A stretch of DNA of 9,808 nt, taken from IMG/VR virus record IMGVR_UViG_2061766007_001878; one strand, given 5' to 3'. Shown here piece after piece: positions 1,418 through 9,808 of this stretch. The notes under the pieces were generated by a model that saw only the letters and a list, made by a program, of their open reading frames with translations, searched no databases and was not told the DNA's origin. How positions within the stretch are numbered: position 1 is the stretch's first letter; the number at the start of each line of letters is the position of its first letter. The position numbers were made by a program, and so were the translations under genes. The stretch comes from an uncultured virus (IMG/VR IMGVR_UViG_2061766007_001878). Lineage: Duplodnaviria > Heunggongvirae > Uroviricota > Caudoviricetes.

Positions 1418-1964
1418 GATTCAAGCTCCTTGCTGTCGCCAGCCGTAAGGTCTTCCATGCTGACAGAGGCATGCGACTGCCTCAGATAGCTCATTTCGTC
1501 GATGACGGCTTTCTCAAGCTGGCTATATGAATGCATCTTCTCGGCGCAGTTTTTGTAGGCGTTCATTATCAGGTAGTCGAGGTCGTCCCAGACCTCCGTG
1601 TAAGTCACCATCGTGTCGTCGCTGAAAATCTGGATGGCATACTTCGGCATGTCCTTGCTCGGTTCGAGCTTCATGACCATCGCCTTCATGCCGNNNNNNN
1701 NNNGTACGAACGCATCTTCTCGGCGCAGTTCTTGTAGGCGTTCATTATCAGGTAGTCGAGGTCGTCCCAGACCTCGTTGTAGTCCACTATCATGTCGTCG
1801 CTGAAAATCTGAATGGCATACTTCGGCAGGTTCTTGTTCGGTTCGAACTTCATGACCATCGCCTTCATGCCGTAGTTCTCATGGACTCTTATCGTGCCAG
1901 TGCCTTCGGTGAAACCGTACTTCGCCAGCGTCTCAAGTTCTTCTTCAGTAAAATCTTCCTTCAT
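1414..1964 (-). CDS. Hypothetical protein of about 123 aa, represented as two overlapping alleles joined by an N gap (the 92-aa and 91-aa ORFs of the track)
   Basis: AAAGGAG RBS overlapping the topoisomerase stop precedes the ATG at 1964. 1525..1693 and 1704..1872 encode the same segment (GMKAMVMK...KNCAEKMxSY) on either side of 10 Ns. Confidence 0.7.
1525..1872. repeat. 169-bp direct duplication across an N gap (1525..1693 vs 1704..1872); probable strain-variant assembly bubble
   Basis: Direct comparison: 13 codons differ; both copies abut the gap. Confidence 0.8.
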
Positions 1965-1975
1965 TTGAATCTCCT

Positions 1976-3814
1976 TTATATCAAATTTCCGAGAATGAAG
2001 TCCCTGCGTTGGGTTGTGTTGTCGCCCATGTAGAATTCCATCATCCCGTCAAGCTTCTTCTCGCAGTCGATGGTCACTTTCTGCAATCTGATTCCCTTGC
2101 CGATGAACTGTCCGAACTCCTGCGGGGAGATTTCGCCAAGCCCCTTGAACCGAGTGATTTCGCACCCGCGTCCGAGCTGTTTGATTGCATCCTCGCGTTC
2201 GGCATCCGAGTAACAATAAAGATTCTGCTTCTTGTTGCGGACACGGAACAATGGAGTTTCGAGAATATACAAATGCCCTTGCTGAACCAACGGGCGGAAG
2301 TATGTCATGAAGTAGGTCATGAGGAGGAGGCGGATGTGAAATCCGTCCACATCGGCATCCGACGCGATGACGACCTTGTTGTAACGGAGGTCGTCGATAC
2401 TATCCTCGATTCCAAGAGCCTGCATGATGAAATACAGCTCCTCGTTCTTATACATGACATCACGTTTCTTGCCCTGCACGTTAAAAGGCTTGCCACGCAA
2501 CGGGAAGACGGCTTGAATCTCAGGATTACGAGCGTAAATCATGTTCGAGCCAGCGGAATCGCCCTCCGTCAGGAATATCATGGAATTGAGGCACTTGAGG
2601 CGTTCATCCTGTTTCTTCCTGTCCTCGAAACCACAGTAATGGAATTTGCAGTCACGAAGCTTCGGGACTTTCAGGGCGACCTTCTTGCTCTGTTCCTTCG
2701 CTTCCTTCTTGACATTCTGTATCTGCTTGCGGATTGACTCGTTTTGAGCAATCTTCTCAAACAACGCCGTCTTGAAGTCGGCATTCTTGAAAAGCTCCGC
2801 AGCGACCGCCTGTTTCACTTCGTTCACCACCCACTGCCTGATATCCGTATTGCCGAGCTTGTTCTTCGTCTGCGACTCGAAAATCGGGTCTTCAAGACGG
2901 ATGGAAACAACTCCAAGCAATCCAGAACGCACATCGGACGAATCCAATGTCTTGCCAGCGATGTCATTGACGGCTTTCAGGAATCCCTCCTTGAAGGCGG
3001 AAAGATGCGTACCGCCGTCCACCGTGTACTGCCCATTGGCGAAAGAATAGTACATTTCGTCCGTCGTCGCGAGATGCGTCAAGGCGAATTCGATTTTGTC
3101 TGAACGATAATAAAACGGCTTGTAAAGCGCATCGGATTCCCGCTTGTCTTCAAGCAGGTCGATAAGCCCGTTCTCGGAATAAAATTCCTCACCGTTTAAA
3201 TAAAGATGAAGACCTGTATTCAACCAAGCATAATTCTGAAGGCGTTTGACAATGAACTTCTCCTCGAAGCGATATCCCTTGAAGATTTCGTTGGACGGCT
3301 TGAACATGATTTCCGTCCCATTTGGGTCGCTTGTATTGGATTCGTTCTTCTCCTTCAACTTGCCAAGTTTGAAATATGCACGAAACTGCTTTCCGTCACG
3401 ACGAGAAATGACCTCGAATTCGTCACTCAACGCATTGACGGCTTTCAGACCGACACCGTTCAGACCAATGGAACACGAGAATGCCTTCGGCTTCCCGTCC
3501 TCGCCGACATCGAACTTCCCGCCCGTATTTATCTTCGATACGCAGTCGATGACCTTGCCAAGCGGGATGCCACGCCCGTAGTCGCGGACGCGCACCCGTT
3601 CGGCATCGAGGATGATGTCAATTTTGGAACCATTCCCCGTCGAGAATTCATCGATGGAATTGTCGATGACCTCTTTAAACAGCACATAAATACCGTCGTC
3701 ATTATGCTCGCCATTTCCAAGCTTGCCAATATACATGCCTGGACGCATGCGTATATGCTCAAGCGGATTCACCGACCTGATGCTGTTCTCGTCATATTTC
3801 AAATCATTAGCCAT
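1976..3814 (-). CDS. parE: Type IIA DNA topoisomerase subunit B (topoisomerase IV ParE-like)
   Basis: EHIRMRPGMYIG; GHKL ATPase motifs EVIDNSIDE, DYGRGIP, GLNGVG; TOPRIM motifs TEGDSA, PLRGK, DADVDG, RFKGLGE. The length (~612 aa) and the GKLGxG..DDGIYVL and GKVIDCVSKINTG segments resemble the ParE type of Bacteroidota/PVC/spirochaetes rather than canonical GyrB. The ATG at 3814 is preferred over the TTG at 3820 because AAAAGG lies upstream at suitable spacing. Confidence 0.92.
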   Translation of the reverse strand: MANDLKYDENSIRSVNPLEHIRMRPGMYIGKLGNGEHNDDGIYVLFKEVIDNSIDEFSTGNGSKIDIILDAERVRVRDYGRGIPLGKVIDCVSKINTGGKFDVGEDGKPKAFSCSIGLNGVGLKAVNALSDEFEVISRRDGKQFRAYFKLGKLKEKNESNTSDPNGTEIMFKPSNEIFKGYRFEEKFIVKRLQNYAWLNTGLHLYLNGEEFYSENGLIDLLEDKRESDALYKPFYYRSDKIEFALTHLATTDEMYYSFANGQYTVDGGTHLSAFKEGFLKAVNDIAGKTLDSSDVRSGLLGVVSIRLEDPIFESQTKNKLGNTDIRQWVVNEVKQAVAAELFKNADFKTALFEKIAQNESIRKQIQNVKKEAKEQSKKVALKVPKLRDCKFHYCGFEDRKKQDERLKCLNSMIFLTEGDSAGSNMIYARNPEIQAVFPLRGKPFNVQGKKRDVMYKNEELYFIMQALGIEDSIDDLRYNKVVIASDADVDGFHIRLLLMTYFMTYFRPLVQQGHLYILETPLFRVRNKKQNLYCYSDAEREDAIKQLGRGCEITRFKGLGEISPQEFGQFIGKGIRLQKVTIDCEKKLDGMMEFYMGDNTTQRRDFILGNLI

Positions 3815-3839
3815 TGTCAAACCTTTTGGCTTGTGAAAA

Positions 3840-4049
3840 TCATCCCTTCATTCTCTGAATCATACGGATGGTGCTCTTGCGCCTGCGCTTCGCCTCTTTC
3901 CGCTTCTCGCTTTCAGGCGTAAAGGAACGCCGTTCCTTCATCTCGTCGAAGATGCCTTCCTTCTCCATCTTGCGCTTCAAAATCTTGCACGCCTTTTCGG
4001 GTGTGATTTTGTAACCTTTCTTGCTGGTCAATTTTACTTCTACTGGCAT
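3840..4049 (-). CDS. rpsU: 30S ribosomal protein bS21
   Basis: 69 aa, very basic. EKACKILKRKMEKEGIFDEMKERRSFTPESEKRK fits the bS21 pattern (E.AL...K.K....G...E.K.R..Y/F..PSE.R+). Strong AAAGGAG RBS. Confidence 0.88.
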   Translation of the reverse strand: MPVEVKLTSKKGYKITPEKACKILKRKMEKEGIFDEMKERRSFTPESEKRKEAKRRRKSTIRMIQRMKG

Positions 4050-4090
4050 GTTTTTGTCTCCTTTTTAGATTTGTTGAAAAACGCGACACC

Positions 4091-4121
4091 ATTAATATGA
4101 ATCGTTTTTCTAAAATTTCAA
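4091..4121 (-). promoter_or_regulatory. Promoter TTGAAA-N16-CATATT(AAT) for the rpsU-parE transcription unit
   Basis: 24/31 identical to 935..965; overlaps the glycosyltransferase stop codon and ends about 40 nt before the rpsU start. Confidence 0.6.
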
Positions 4122-4934
4122 CTCGCGAATATACATTTTCAGACATTCCCTCATGTCATCGACATCGACAAATGTATTCGCAAGCCGTCCCAATGGCATC
4201 ACGTCTGGTATTTCCGACGACATCTCGCACATTCTTGGAACCTTCAACGCCTCTGCAAGGGAAAACAGGAACGTCTGGTTTCCGACAACAAAGGAACAAC
4301 GCTGGAAAGCCCTGCATATGTCGATAAACGTCCCGTTGAAAAGCGGGACTTCGCAATGCATGCTTTGGACAAATGCATCATGCTCCCCCTTTGTACCAAA
4401 ATAAACCAGCCTGTCGGCATATGGTCTTAAAAGATTGTAATGCGGAATCTTGCGGTTCCTGTATCTTGAAGTCCTGAACACGGCTATCTTTCCTTCAAGC
4501 CAGTCGTACTTGGGGTCGTTCGCTCCATCCACAATCAGCCAAGGGTCTGAAGCGTCATAGTAATCAGGAAGCCTTCTGAGGAACCTGTATCTTCGTGTAA
4601 TGTCCCCCTGCTTCATGTTGACACGCCCCTTTCTGATGATTCCAAGGTCGAGGGCATGAGCACCTCCCCAGTCAACAGACCGTTCGATATGGAGTGCCTT
4701 TATATAAGGCTGAAGAGCCAATACGTCCCCAAGCATCCTCAACGATGCCAAAGCAATGTCGACTCCATTTTCTTTATGATTACAACATAAATCAAGATAA
4801 TACTCGAATTTACCGCCATTGTCAAGCTGGCTCGCATTCATGATGCCGACACAGGACAGGCAAAACGGTATCGCATATATGATATCCCCGAATGCGCCTG
4901 GATTGTAAAATCTGTCAAGAACAACATTATCCAT
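4110..4934 (-). CDS. GT-B fold glycosyltransferase, GT9 (heptosyltransferase)-like
   Basis: N-terminal GAFGDIIYAIP resembles the GT9 G.GD....P motif. C-terminal FVVGNQTFLFSLAEALKVP resembles GT9 FIGNDSG..H.A.A.GVP. AAGGAA RBS. Confidence 0.6.
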   Translation of the reverse strand: MDNVVLDRFYNPGAFGDIIYAIPFCLSCVGIMNASQLDNGGKFEYYLDLCCNHKENGVDIALASLRMLGDVLALQPYIKALHIERSVDWGGAHALDLGIIRKGRVNMKQGDITRRYRFLRRLPDYYDASDPWLIVDGANDPKYDWLEGKIAVFRTSRYRNRKIPHYNLLRPYADRLVYFGTKGEHDAFVQSMHCEVPLFNGTFIDICRAFQRCSFVVGNQTFLFSLAEALKVPRMCEMSSEIPDVMPLGRLANTFVDVDDMRECLKMYIRELKF

Positions 4935-4951
4935 TTTATTCCTTATATACT

Positions 4952-6937
4952 TTAAATACCTAAGTCAGGTCCAGTCATACCGACATTATACATTTTAATA
5001 AACACAATATTTCCGCAATCATAAATTCTATTCCACCCGTTTAGCTCCATATTTTCTTCTTCAGTCAAATCTGAATTGAAAGAAGTACCAAGAATAGATG
5101 AAAGCTTATGCTTTTGACATTGATACCTAGAAAGCTTGACTTGATTTTTCTGCCACCAGTAATTAGGCTCTGAATCTTTCACTTTATCAAATCCAAGTTT
5201 TACATATACATTACCTATACTATATCGTTTATCCGCGTAGGTAATCAATGATTTTGGTTTACATTCTTGTTCAAAATTCTTCAATAATTTCGAAGCTCCT
5301 CCAACAACCTGTACACCCATTTTAGAACAGAATCTCATCAATTCAAATTCATACTTGTCGTTAAATCTTGGTTTTCCAAAGGTCATAACAGAAACAAGCT
5401 CAGTTTTATAGAACAATCCATATCTTATCGAGGCATTGTCACCGCCTTGAAGATGATTCTCATCGAGAAACTTATTCGATTCATTTGCTTCAATTGCTTT
5501 CACTACGCATTGTCTTGCAAAAATCTTCCTTTCATGTAGACCAAGGCACGATTTTATCCTATCTTTCACAATTTCCTGATTTTCCAGCCATTCGTCTTCA
5601 AATACATGAATCAATTGAATGCCTTGTGACAAACAATCACTTGTCTTTTCAAGATGATATGTTTTGTCTTTTCCTGACTTGTCATTATGCCAAAACAATC
5701 CATCCATTTCAATAGCAAGATTGACTTCAGGAAGATAGATGTCCAATTCCTTTCCTCCTAACAAAGTTCTATCATTTTCAATGATAATCCCAGAATAAAT
5801 GGATTTTACAAAATCAGTTATCTCTTTTTCCAAACATGATGAATTCGTATTATGAGGATAACAGTTAAGGCATCTCGGCAAATTAGTTGCTTTTCTGTCT
5901 ATCCATGTCGTATGAATGCTTTGTTCAAATACATTTCCGCATTTTACGCATTTCCATCGATATACCTGTCCTCTATTCCAACCTGTGTATTCTTCAACTG
6001 TAAATAAAGGAACAACATAATCTTTCCATCTTTGAAACCGATTGTAGGTCTTTTGAAGAAATTCCCTTGACTGGAAATACGAATCAGACCCATATTTTTC
6101 ATGCATCGTCTTTTTTCTTTTTTGCTTGACTTCTTCATTCTGAGTTGGATATTCACATCCAAATTTATCAAGATTGTTTCTTTTCCTTTTTTCATTCAAT
6201 TCATCAGAATGAGAAGCATTCCTGACTCCATAGCGTTCAAGACAAGTCTGTTCTGCTTTCAATTTTATTTCATTGTTTTGAAACGGATTTTCACATCCAT
6301 ATTTGTCAAGCATTGTCTGTTTTGACTTTTCACGGACAGATTTAACAGAAAACGTGCTTTCAACACCATATCTCTCCATGCACGTTTTCTTATATTTTTC
6401 CCTTACTTCCTTTGTTTTAAAATGACTGTCCACACCGTATTTCTCAAGACAATTTTCCTTTCTCTTCTTTTGTATCTCCTGACTCTGAATGGCATTTTCA
6501 ACACCATATCTCTCCATGCATGTTTGTTTATGCTTTTCCCTGACTTTCGCAGACTGCATAGGATGTGCTGAACCATATTTTTTCAAATTTGTTTCTTCCC
6601 TCTTTTTATTCGCCCTTGCAATAGCCTCTTCATCATAAACCCTTTTTTTATTGCATACAGATGCACACTTGAAACTGCAAAATCTTCTTCCATTGCATGC
6701 TTTTCTCAAATCTATTTCTTTACCACAAACCTCACATCTCTTTTTTTCGTAAATTTCATTGGCAACACAGACAAACGCTCTTCTCTTATCTTGAAACCAC
6801 GGGTCACTTTCAACAAGCTTTTCAAGATATTCATCAACGTCCTTATTTTCTTTAATAAATGTCCAGAATGACTTTCCTCTATTTTTATTCCACAAGAACT
6901 GAATTTTTTCTTTTACAATCTGATTTGGAGCTTCCAT
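4952..6937 (-). CDS. Putative free-standing homing endonuclease (Hef-like architecture): Zn finger, 8 x 23-aa repeats, Zn ribbon, Vsr/DUF559-like nuclease, C-terminal GNAT/Mom-like domain
   Basis: CEVC...FCSFKC; K/RYG repeats; CVKC...CLNC; EKE...ELDIYLPEVNLAIEMDGLFWH...HLEK...GIQLIHVFEDEW; ELMRFC...GGASKL...ITYADKRYSIGNVY..LGF. Visibly more AT-rich than its neighbours. CAGGAG RBS. Confidence 0.75.
   Translation of the reverse strand: MEAPNQIVKEKIQFLWNKNRGKSFWTFIKENKDVDEYLEKLVESDPWFQDKRRAFVCVANEIYEKKRCEVCGKEIDLRKACNGRRFCSFKCASVCNKKRVYDEEAIARANKKREETNLKKYGSAHPMQSAKVREKHKQTCMERYGVENAIQSQEIQKKRKENCLEKYGVDSHFKTKEVREKYKKTCMERYGVESTFSVKSVREKSKQTMLDKYGCENPFQNNEIKLKAEQTCLERYGVRNASHSDELNEKRKRNNLDKFGCEYPTQNEEVKQKRKKTMHEKYGSDSYFQSREFLQKTYNRFQRWKDYVVPLFTVEEYTGWNRGQVYRWKCVKCGNVFEQSIHTTWIDRKATNLPRCLNCYPHNTNSSCLEKEITDFVKSIYSGIIIENDRTLLGGKELDIYLPEVNLAIEMDGLFWHNDKSGKDKTYHLEKTSDCLSQGIQLIHVFEDEWLENQEIVKDRIKSCLGLHERKIFARQCVVKAIEANESNKFLDENHLQGGDNASIRYGLFYKTELVSVMTFGKPRFNDKYEFELMRFCSKMGVQVVGGASKLLKNFEQECKPKSLITYADKRYSIGNVYVKLGFDKVKDSEPNYWWQKNQVKLSRYQCQKHKLSSILGTSFNSDLTEEENMELNGWNRIYDCGNIVFIKMYNVGMTGPDLGI
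6060..6610 (-). repeat. Eight intragenic 69-bp (23-aa) tandem repeats with core T-C/M/N-L/M-E/D-K/R-Y-G
   Basis: KKYG, ERYG, EKYG, ERYG, DKYG, ERYG, DKFG and EKYG are spaced exactly 23 aa apart; the first and last Gly codons are 483 nt (7 x 69) apart. Confidence 0.9.
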
Positions 6938-6966
6938 TTTTTTCTCCTGATACTTTTGTACTTTTA

Positions 6967-6997
6967 TTTAATATGAAAACTTTTACTATTTATTAAA
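6967..6997 (-). promoter_or_regulatory. Degenerate third copy of the promoter motif (CATATTAA) upstream of the endonuclease gene
   Basis: 21/31 identical to 4091..4121, but the background is very AT-rich and the -35 element is weak (TTTAAT). Confidence 0.35.
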
Positions 6998-7007
6998 TAA
7001 AAATAAA

Positions 7008-7044
7008 GAAAAAGTCATGAAATGTAATATTTCATGACTTTTTC
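7008..7044 (-). terminator. Perfect 16-bp inverted repeat; probable terminator of the upstream gene
   Basis: GAAAAAGTCATGAAAT-gtaat-ATTTCATGACTTTTTC, followed by a T-rich run on the minus strand; 23 nt after the stop at 7068. Confidence 0.7.
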
Positions 7045-7067
7045 AATAATACATAAGTAATTATATA

Positions 7068-7232
7068 TCAAATACCTAAATCGGGTCCAGTCATACCAAC
7101 CATTCTATTATATTTAATACCCTTTGTTTTTCCATATCCTATCTGCCCATGAGGTCCAGGTCTGATTCCGTTGCCCATCGTAACTGCACGCCAATAGGCT
7201 GGAGTCGGCTTGGACAGATAAGCAGGGGCACG
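7068..7232 (-). CDS. 3' fragment of an unknown gene (...RAPAYLSKPTPAYWRAVTMGNGIRPGPHGQIGYGKTKGIKYNRMVGMTGPDLGI), truncated by an N gap
   Basis: Open frame up to the gap, followed by a hairpin. The synonymous-only divergence of its duplicated end supports coding status. Confidence 0.65.
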   Translation of the reverse strand, partial: RAPAYLSKPTPAYWRAVTMGNGIRPGPHGQIGYGKTKGIKYNRMVGMTGPDLGI

Positions 7233-7243
7233 NNNNNNNNNNA

Positions 7244-7338
7244 CCAAAGAAATCAAAGGAGTAAAATATGGAATGCGACAATTCGTGTCATTTTGCGCTG
7301 TTTTACAATGATTTGAAGGATTTAAACATCCTTACAAG
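7244..7338. repeat. Inverted copy of window positions 1..95 (allelic contig scaffolded in the opposite orientation)
   Basis: 92/95 identical; starts immediately after the N gap. Confidence 0.85.
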
Positions 7339-8032: not shown

Positions 8033-8790
8033 TGGAAAATTGGTGGACTGCTGTTGAAGATTGGGACAGCATGACTGGAAAACAGAAAAAGTCGATAATT
8101 GTCTGGCTTGAAAATTATCTTGGAAAGGATTTTGCCAGACAGCTTGATATTGCGGACAACAACAAAAGGCTCAGTCTTTACAAAAATCCAGAAGACCATA
8201 TTGACATTTCCGAGATGAGCGAGCTTATCGAGATTCTTGCCTGTTACGACCCAATCAGAATTCGTACTCATTATGTGACCAAGGTGGATGCCCAGAGAAA
8301 ACTCTACATAGGGGTGGATGGAACGAAGTATCCCACGAAGGAGAGAAGGGATGAAGCCGACATGAAGATGAAGGAGATAATCCTTGAACTGACGGATGAA
8401 AAGGGATGGAAGAAGCTACGTGCAAAAAAAGATGAGGAAGAGAAGGCTCAATCTGATGCTGAATATCATATTAATTTGGTGAGGGAAAATGGTGAAGTAA
8501 CATTGAGCATATTGGATTCTTTGGAGGATGCCGTTGAAGAAGCAAAGAATCTGACTGGTTCTTACCTTATGGGCACTGTCAGAATGAGTCTTGATGAAGT
8601 CTGCGAAGAGGACAAACTTGACTGGACGAAGGAAAATATCATTGAGATTCCGAAGGCGAAGCTCATCGAGAGCAGGCTGAATGACGAATTCAGCATCCTT
8701 TGCAAAACAGTGAAGGATTCTCCTTTAGCGGAGAAGATTCTTAAAACAACGCAGAACAATGAATTCATTGATTTTTTGAGGACGGTATGA
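8026..8790 (+). CDS. Hypothetical protein, 254 aa; paralog of 75..902
   Basis: Strong RBS; the allelic copy of its 3' part (8845..9102) differs mostly synonymously; shares motifs with the 275-aa ORF. Confidence 0.85.
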   Translation: MELENWWTAVEDWDSMTGKQKKSIIVWLENYLGKDFARQLDIADNNKRLSLYKNPEDHIDISEMSELIEILACYDPIRIRTHYVTKVDAQRKLYIGVDGTKYPTKERRDEADMKMKEIILELTDEKGWKKLRAKKDEEEKAQSDAEYHINLVRENGEVTLSILDSLEDAVEEAKNLTGSYLMGTVRMSLDEVCEEDKLDWTKENIIEIPKAKLIESRLNDEFSILCKTVKDSPLAEKILKTTQNNEFIDFLRTV

Positions 8791-9146
8791 CAATTGGCAA
8801 ACAAGGAAATGCGATACAACCTCTGCACAAGCAANNNNNNNNNNATTGAAGAAGCAAAGAATCTGACTGGTTCTTACCTTATGGGAACTGTCAGAATGAG
8901 TCTTGATGAAGTCTGCGACGAGGACAAGCTTGATTGGACAAAAGAGAACGTCATCGAAATCTCGAAGGCGAAGCTCATCGAGAGCAGGCTGAATGACGAA
9001 TTCAGCATCCTTTACAAAACAGTGAAGGATTCTCCTTTGGCAGAAAAGATTCTTAAAACAACGCAGAACAATGAATTCATTGATTTTTTGAGGACAGTAT
9101 GACAATTGGCAAACAAGGAAATGCGATACAACCTCTGCACAAGCAA
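8533..9146. repeat. 302-bp direct duplication across an N gap (8533..8834 vs 8845..9146); probable strain-variant bubble
   Basis: 19 differing codons by manual count (14 synonymous, 5 non-synonymous); both copies abut the gap. Confidence 0.85.
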
Positions 9147-9504: not shown

Positions 9505-9645
9505 CTTGAACAGCAGTGGAAGGACTACTATCTTGAGTACGCCTCCTATGTTGTCAAGGACAGGGCTATCCCAGACGTGGACGACGGCATGAAGCCTGTC
9601 CAGCGTCGCATCATGCACTGCATGCACGAAGTGGATGATGGCAGG
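9505..9645 (+). CDS. parC: N-terminal fragment of type IIA topoisomerase subunit A (ParC/GyrA), between two N gaps
   Basis: YLEYASYVVKDRAIPDVDDGMKPVQRRIMHCM contains the RA.P...DG.KPVQRRI signature; YASYV and DDGR match the same ParC subtype as the ParE-like gene. Confidence 0.85.
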
Positions 9646-9657
9646 NNNNNNNNNNCC

Positions 9658-9808
9658 GACCATTATTGCTCGCATTGCGGTCAGAATATCAAGGGCATTG
9701 CGGATGCTGGTGGCAATGATGACATCCGCGAAGAGAAATAAAGACGGTCTCTACATGCTGTGAAAAAGCCGAGGAATGAGTTGAATTCCTCGGTTTTTTG
9801 CTTTTATG
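9658..9808 (+). repeat. Inverted allelic copy of about 969..1117: 3' end of the zinc-ribbon gene (9658..9741) plus its terminator (9763..9799)
   Basis: DHYCSHCGQNIKGIADAGGNDDIREEK vs DKYCSHCGQNIEGIADAGGNNDIREEK; identical hairpin; 2-nt indel in the spacer. Confidence 0.85.

Follow-up and report, generated by a model that had tools for sequence, protein, structure and literature searches.

The stretch of DNA analysed here (the window; 9,808 nt, IMG/VR record IMGVR_UViG_2061766007_001878, from an uncultured virus of the Caudoviricetes) carries on its minus strand an open reading frame (ORF) for a Hef-like homing endonuclease of 661 residues, and the last ten codons and stop of this ORF repeat the end of the gene that precedes it. 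The preceding gene represents a conserved phage gene family that is called gpX throughout. The arrangement is best understood, with a probability of roughly 80%, as the result of a free-standing Hef-like homing endonuclease gene having colonised the 3' end of gpX in a jumbo-phage lineage of the cattle gut and having left the last 10 codons of gpX doubled. The parts of the locus, in the order in which the minus strand is read, are the following.

7068..7232, minus strand: 3' fragment of gpX, 54 codons and a stop, whose phmmer matches lie at the extreme C-terminus of proteins of 277-903 residues
7068..7100, minus strand: in-gene tail copy (T'), VGMTGPDLGI and TGA, continuous with gpX and collinear with the C-termini of its homologues
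7008..7044, minus strand: intrinsic-terminator-like hairpin (16-bp stem, then a T-run) that separates the nuclease gene from the gpX stop
6944..6948, minus strand: ribosome-binding site (RBS) AGGAG, 6 nt 5' of the nuclease ATG (6937)
4952..6937, minus strand: the Hef-like homing endonuclease ORF of 661 residues, matched by PHROG 3339, PHROG 559 and DUF7487
4952..4984, minus strand: second tail copy (T), nuclease residues 652-661 in frame and TAA; the family profile match stops at residue 650
4935..4951, minus strand: 17-nt spacer behind T, containing the next gene's RBS and TATATAA (also present behind T')
4110..4934, minus strand: the downstream gene, of 274 residues, with no Pfam or PHROG match

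VGMTGPDLGI and a stop are encoded twice, at 7100..7068 and at 4984..4952. The two copies are identical at 29 of 33 nt, and all four differences (three third-codon positions, and TGA versus TAA) are silent, as had been claimed in an earlier interpretation made from the letters of the window without database searches (the sequence-only reading), which had also given the codon strings of both ends exactly. When four random substitutions were simulated (200,000 trials), peptide and stop survived in 0.25-0.40% of trials. A repeat search paired 4946-4984 with 7062-7100 (39 nt, 85%), the likeness reaching about 6 nt past the stops (TATATA). Similarity had been noted earlier on both flanks: the part behind the stops holds, whereas ATTAAA..TATAAT ahead of the tails is most likely a coincidence. 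This motif was rejected as a recombination junction, because the residues encoded there, FIKMYNV, belong to the nuclease family itself (P0002, the closest homologue, ends FVKEYNVNGLE).

The window is a scaffold with several runs of N, and the doubled end could in principle be an artefact of strain-variant contigs wrongly joined at a short repeat. Direct repeats surround N runs (1526-1693 versus 1705-1872 at 91%; 8534-8833 versus 8846-9145 at 94%), the ends of the window reappear inverted within it (1-95 versus 7244-7338 at 97%; 969-1118 versus 9657-9808 at 90-97%), and one gap lies 133 nt from the upstream tail copy; the scaffold looks like a set of overlapping strain-variant contigs that were joined unmerged. 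Both tail copies, however, lie within the N-free stretch 1705-7232 and differ from each other at four positions, and a 4,864-bp contig assembled separately from run X1, possibly the source sample, stops at 7232, the position of the scaffold gap, and has 0 differences from the window over 3942-7232. In run X3, from another study, contigs cross both junctions at about 97% identity, one spanning 3800-5147 (nuclease 3' end, tail copy and next gene) and one 5877-7118 (nuclease start, terminator and in-gene tail), and a contig from run X5 spans 6834-7232. The tail-nuclease-tail arrangement is genuine and present in independent samples; contigs of two studies speak against the mis-join at either repeat that the sequence-only reading had named as a refutation, and an assembly artefact is highly improbable. 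What does suffer from the scaffolding is gpX itself. The upstream gene of the earlier interpretation is present in the window only as a 165-nt fragment; the N gap at 7233-7243 truncates it, and what follows past 7243 is the reversed left end of the window rather than the upstream part of gpX.

The earlier call of an endonuclease gene was borne out by profile searches. The protein matches PHROG 3339, annotated as homing endonuclease, over residues 211-650 (E 1.2e-154; profile positions 109-535 of 536), PHROG 559 (E 7.7e-98) and the Pfam family DUF7487 (E 2.2e-46; 158.9 bits against a cut-off of 27), and its DNA matches genes annotated as Hef-like homing endonuclease in Campylobacter, Dickeya and Klebsiella phages. 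By these matches it is a full-length, free-standing member of the Hef-like homing endonuclease family, of which 2,440 homologues were recovered at E<=1e-3. The ORF begins 130 nt behind gpX and forms an AT-rich island, with a G+C content of 0.34 and a G+C content at third codon positions (GC3) of 0.30, versus 0.46-0.49 and 0.52-0.67 in the neighbouring genes. Because Rfam gave no match at E<=1 in 4700-7232, and because gpX has its own stop and terminator and the nuclease a separate RBS and ATG, the nuclease gene is neither intron-borne nor an intein, which agrees with the earlier description of the element as lacking both. The hairpin is the sole terminator-like site in 4850-7232. Promoter-like hexamers near T' were discounted, nine being found and 8.5 expected. 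A complete jumbo-phage relative of 329 kb (G001, which contains locus L051) holds about seven full-length and several partial copies of such nuclease genes.

The ownership of the tail was settled by comparing the two families. The 54-residue gpX fragment, searched with phmmer against 1.84 billion representatives, gave nine matches, with GHTGPDLGI, GGSDLGL and NVLGI among the best C-termini; a second gpX search gave 37 homologues, and in the pooled sets 33 of 40 end in GPDL[GD][IVLG]. Full-length gpX homologues have 401 (L051) and 472 residues (L054), and P0147 (473 residues, on a 293-kb contig) agrees with the window fragment at every one of its last 48 residues. Neither Pfam nor PHROG has a family that matches gpX above threshold, and in the ESM Atlas it falls only into unnamed viral clusters (scores <=0.84); tblastn of the fragment against phage records, an IMG/VR scan for the exact tail pattern (0 matches) and an IMG/VR scan with P0122 gave nothing. 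On the nuclease side, GPDL occurs within the last 15 residues of two of the 120 best homologues, the set over which nuclease tails were counted. The conserved DCGN motif is followed by a median of 7 residues in that family versus 18 in the window protein, and P0002 (79% identical) shares the sequence up to ...YNV and then ends NGLE*, without the tail. Because 33 of 40 gpX homologues but only 2 of 120 nuclease homologues carry such an end, the tail is native to gpX and was captured by the nuclease; on these counts it is a piece of gpX foreign to the nuclease family, with the junction at or beside residue 652. Persistence of the tail in homologues whatever their neighbour, which the sequence-only reading had listed as a danger to its proposal, is not seen in 118 of the 120. 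Four other homologues (P0016, P0047, P0103 and P0109) have long ends of 19-33 residues after the DCGN motif, which might be captured pieces of other target genes.

Another nuclease with a GPDL end, P0003 (64% identical, on a 296-kb contig), is a putative second capture, independent of the one in the window or long diverged from it. Its sequence runs ...YDCGNIV and then closes with IGMSGPDLDI, which is exactly how a gpX variant, P0164 (268 residues, on a 288-kb contig), ends; the C-terminus of P0164 reads ...KMIGMSGPDLDI. The match covers 10 residues. Compared with the capture in the window, the breakpoint in gpX is the same, the breakpoint in the nuclease is different and the gpX lineage is different. 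A GTDB contig scan for P0003 returned only a 38% relative, and a search for short gpX fragments that might set P0002 or P0003 beside gpX yielded two unrelated fragments.

Relatives of gpX place its 3' end among the sites that nuclease genes visit repeatedly. L054 and L059, whose gpX is 96% identical in amino acids to the window fragment, have no nuclease gene and carry a terminator directly 3' of gpX; in L054 it is likewise a hairpin with a T-run right after the stop. The gpX end is similarly free of a nuclease gene in L055 and L060. In L051/L052 and L058 another nuclease lineage (45% identical) starts about 40 nt past the gpX stop, with no duplication, and in L056 a third lineage (41% identical) starts 11 nt past it, as a full gene of 616 residues at 4243-6156; L057, which like L056 has a gpX of 903-905 residues, retains at the same site a mere remnant, the last ~100 nt or 32 residues of that nuclease gene (4990-5104). 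Because nuclease-free, occupied and decayed states are all seen among relatives, the gpX end is, judging from these loci, a site at which nuclease genes have landed repeatedly and have been gained, lost and degraded. The genes downstream of gpX also vary between relatives, and all nuclease-free relatives differ there from the window. The 274-residue gene has no homologue in the complete 329-kb G001, and an IMG/VR scan with its protein counted three relatives and returned 0 loci; the glycosyltransferase label that it had been given earlier finds no backing in Pfam or PHROG.

A further gene-end duplication was found when the 3' end of each nuclease gene was compared with the 3 kb upstream, a test applied to 45 nuclease copies from 41 loci, the window among them and some of the loci near-duplicates of one another, and to 6 further copies from G001. 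The window scored 22 (controls <=9) and L005 scored 35 (controls <=11); no other copy stood out except through a nuclease paralogue next to it, the high scores at L013, L024 and L033 falling on a conserved coding motif, RIYDxG/WDCGN. In L005 a Hef-like nuclease gene stands behind nrdD (anaerobic ribonucleotide reductase, PF13597, E 2.9e-107) and is flanked by an exact repeat of about 50 nt (4714-4763 and 6452-6501) that contains the last 15 codons and stop of nrdD. The two copies of the nrdD end are 100% identical, and the nuclease stop lies inside the second of them, out of frame. The suggestion that homologous endonuclease loci should be searched for C-terminal duplications was consequential in this respect: L005 joins the window, and the other copies tested showed none.

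The L005 locus and the strain variants bear on two alternative explanations of the silent differences. According to the first, which was part of the sequence-only reading, the in-gene copy was supplied by the element in a synonymous, cleavage-resistant form that makes the occupied allele immune. Cut-and-rescue logic of this kind is known for other selfish elements, and the silence of all four differences is what it would produce. At L005, however, the copies are identical, and the in-gene copy of runs X3 and X5 departs from that of the window at three positions (7079, 7080 and 7083), each time silently and twice in favour of the letter found in the nuclease-fused copy. Because the in-gene copy of X3 and X5 reads CCT GAC, two of the four differences are strain polymorphisms. 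Moreover, silent-only divergence is expected between any functional gpX alleles, and the tail codons of relatives differ in the same manner. Protective recoding is unlikely on this evidence, and the claim of a recoded, cleavage-immune copy finds no support. Under the proposed capture the two tails would derive from two functional gpX alleles of different phages, which would explain why all differences are silent.

According to the second, the peptide itself is useful and was kept on the nuclease as a C-terminal signal required by both proteins, perhaps in assembly or localisation. The strong conservation of the gpX C-terminus, the in-frame fusion in both the window and P0003 and the restriction of differences to silent sites are all compatible with this. 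On the other hand, the tail is missing from 118 of the 120 closest nuclease homologues, and the captured copy at L005 is read out of frame and contributes a single codon. Two in-frame events would arise by chance with a probability of at most 1 in 9, and the silent pattern can stem from earlier selection within gpX. A selected peptide is very unlikely.

The proposed colonisation would have given the present layout (gpX with T', stop, terminator, RBS, nuclease ORF, T as the last 10 residues of the nuclease, stop and the unchanged 17-nt leader) in three steps. The nuclease would first have broken the 3' end of gpX in a recipient phage. The gpX side of the break would then have been repaired by homology from a donor carrying gpX, its stop, the terminator and the nuclease gene. 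Finally, the far side would have been sealed by fusing the leftover tail of the recipient to the nuclease ORF, in a non-homologous or very-short-homology join that would replace the last few native nuclease codons and leave the leader of the next gene untouched. Only the gpX side would offer homology, since relatives carry different genes downstream. The candidate target is probably a stretch of ~25 codons at the 3' end of gpX, in which a sharp breakpoint lies 10 codons ahead of the stop.

A variant of this scheme assigns the second tail copy a function in transfer. It would be part of the cassette, a portable arm with which homing needs gpX alone on both sides of the break; the fusion would have arisen once, and the tail would have been renewed by recombination with the gpX of each recipient. 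Two nucleases that are 64% identical indeed carry the same 10 gpX residues, each in the variant of its own gpX lineage; an arm outside gpX would often be absent, the genes downstream of gpX being variable; and, in the sections of the paper available, the fungal mORF elements discussed below likewise carry a C-terminal copy (PMC3630166). Yet 33-39 nt is short, the nearest relative, P0002, lacks the tail, three other nuclease lineages sit behind gpX without a duplication, and the second case comes from proteins alone. It is conceivable, if doubtful, that the 10-codon boundary shared by the captures in the window and P0003 marks the cut or insertion site, and the same tentative standing applies to the tail copy as a functional, portable second homology arm that would allow homing into any gpX allele regardless of the following gene. 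Under either scheme this boundary is a candidate cut or insertion site.

Several observations weigh against the proposed colonisation of gpX. Duplication of the target end is rare in the family (2 of 51 nuclease gene copies, the window included), and the six other full-length copies in G001 show no duplication of their neighbour's end. The cleavage activity of the nuclease and its site are predictions, as are the cut position within gpX, the direction of transfer and the choice of one copy as element-borne. P0003, as a putative second tail capture, is known from protein tails alone. Against the nuclease-free L054 the two copies match at 29 and 28 of 33 nt, which makes native and imported copies indistinguishable; of the earlier claim that the nuclease uses the displaced original end of gpX, the entry of its ORF into the second copy and the use of the stop found there are confirmed, and the identification of the original copy is not. 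Identity between the window gpX and that of L054 falls from 88% over the first 90 nt to only 83% over the last 75 nt; as this is no clear break along the gene, the idea that such a drop marks an imported tract was abandoned. Likewise, gpX joined directly to the 274-residue gene was not found in relatives or in contigs from runs X1, X3, X4 and X5, which miss rare forms; the empty allele of the sequence-only reading is correct as to the 17-nt spacer (4935-4951), and nuclease-free gpX alleles exist, but the predicted 17-nt join was not recovered.

The base composition of the gpX end belongs with these reservations. GC3 is 0.16 in the last 25 codons (7068-7142) versus 0.47 in the preceding 30 codons, and none of 319 host windows of 25 codons is as low, so the AT-rich end noticed earlier is real. 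In the nuclease-free L054 (6344-6419) and L055 (955-1030), GC3 is 0.36 in the last 25 codons versus 0.67-0.77 just upstream, a weaker contrast than in the window, and the step begins directly after an invariant GPHGQ motif. Because these nuclease-free loci show the step, the AT-rich gpX end is not simply a fresh import; it may be an old co-conversion footprint or reflect a separate constraint.

Within the nuclease, two further regions were delimited.

6263..6604, minus strand: best stretch of the DUF7487 repeat region (Pfam), residues 112-225, with internal DNA repeats
5549..5746, minus strand: putative nuclease core (residues 398-463), weakly resembling restriction endonuclease folds of the PD-(D/E)XK type

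The matches of the putative core are below Pfam cut-offs (MTES_1575, E 0.004; PvuRts1I-like_N, E 0.009). The minus-strand order of the 165-nt ORF fragment (7232..7068), the nuclease ORF (6937..4952) and the 274-residue ORF (4934..4110) continues with a homologue of ribosomal protein S21 (4049..3840) and a gene for a topoisomerase II large subunit or GyrB-like protein (3820..1976). The phage-encoded S21 homologue (3840-4049, minus strand; PF01165, E 1.4e-10) lies between the 274-residue gene and the topoisomerase gene. Near the other end of the window, an ORF piece on the plus strand (9505-9645), interrupted by N runs, resembles what we take to be the N-terminus of a GyrA or topoisomerase A subunit; behind it, 9657-9741 (plus strand) is a copy of the zinc-ribbon gene end known at 1034-1100.

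Hef-like nucleases are very common in large phages and their targets are essentially unknown, and this locus offers a concrete candidate target. It also carries a warning for annotation: in nucleases of this kind the C-terminal residues, like the ends of the genes beside them, can be captured or exchanged sequence. If the 10-codon boundary is the site and the tail is an arm, the target and the transfer logic of a large and biochemically almost unstudied nuclease family would be readable from sequence.

Free-standing nucleases that travel with their surroundings are familiar from phage T4, in which SegF, SegG and MobE direct intronless homing with co-conversion of flanking markers. Like them, the window has a free-standing nuclease gene beside its candidate target gene, and flanking sequence would travel along. 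To our knowledge, duplication of a target tail or its in-frame capture has not been described for SegF, SegG or MobE. Hef of T4-related phages was reportedly the subject of work by Sandegren et al. in 2005. Exchange boundaries at nuclease genes have been reported as well, and duplications are mentioned in the available sections of that report only inside nuclease genes (PMC10448857). In the Dickeya phage LIMEstone1, the Hef-like genes F-LimIII, VII, VIII and X are free-standing and lie beside structural genes, as the accessible part of its description states (PMC3296691). They resemble the window in belonging to the same family and adjoining conserved genes (baseplate wedge, tail tube), and a genome can hold many copies of such genes, as G001 does; the window differs in its duplicated neighbour end and nuclease fusion, neither of which the accessible part of that description mentions (PMC3296691). 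A limited search of partly accessible literature found no description of target-tail duplication or fusion for a Hef-like enzyme or a jumbo phage.

The closest parallel comes from fungal mitochondria. According to the sections available, mORF elements in atp6, atp9, cox2 and nad3 of Glomus sp. are inserted ORFs with a C-terminal duplication of the host gene downstream of them, and the same arrangement is cited there for atp6 of Allomyces macrogynus (PMC3630166). The mORF is sometimes in phase with the duplication, and native-type copies differ only synonymously, as far as those sections tell (PMC3630166). In Endoconidiophora resinifera, partial C-terminal duplications of cob and atp6 are described beside endonuclease ORFs in the part of the report at hand (PMC6279837). 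In the window, too, an endonuclease ORF lies between an intact gpX end and a second copy of the same end, which is the make-up of a mORF-type hybrid. The likeness, within what these partial sources convey, extends to the union of gene ends from two lineages. The fungal elements encode LAGLIDADG or GIY-YIG enzymes, are organellar and duplicate 50-280 nt, whereas the phage element is Hef-like and duplicates 33-39 nt; phylogeny marks the inserted fungal copy as foreign, whereas both copies in the window are equally near L054; and, unlike the mORFs as described in those sections, the window has a terminator and an RBS between the gene and the nuclease ORF. In its sequence layout, the arrangement is the endonuclease cassette with a duplicated target 3' end that is known from fungal mitochondria, and the mitochondrial pattern of gene-end duplication around an endonuclease accordingly also occurs in phages, with a different nuclease family.

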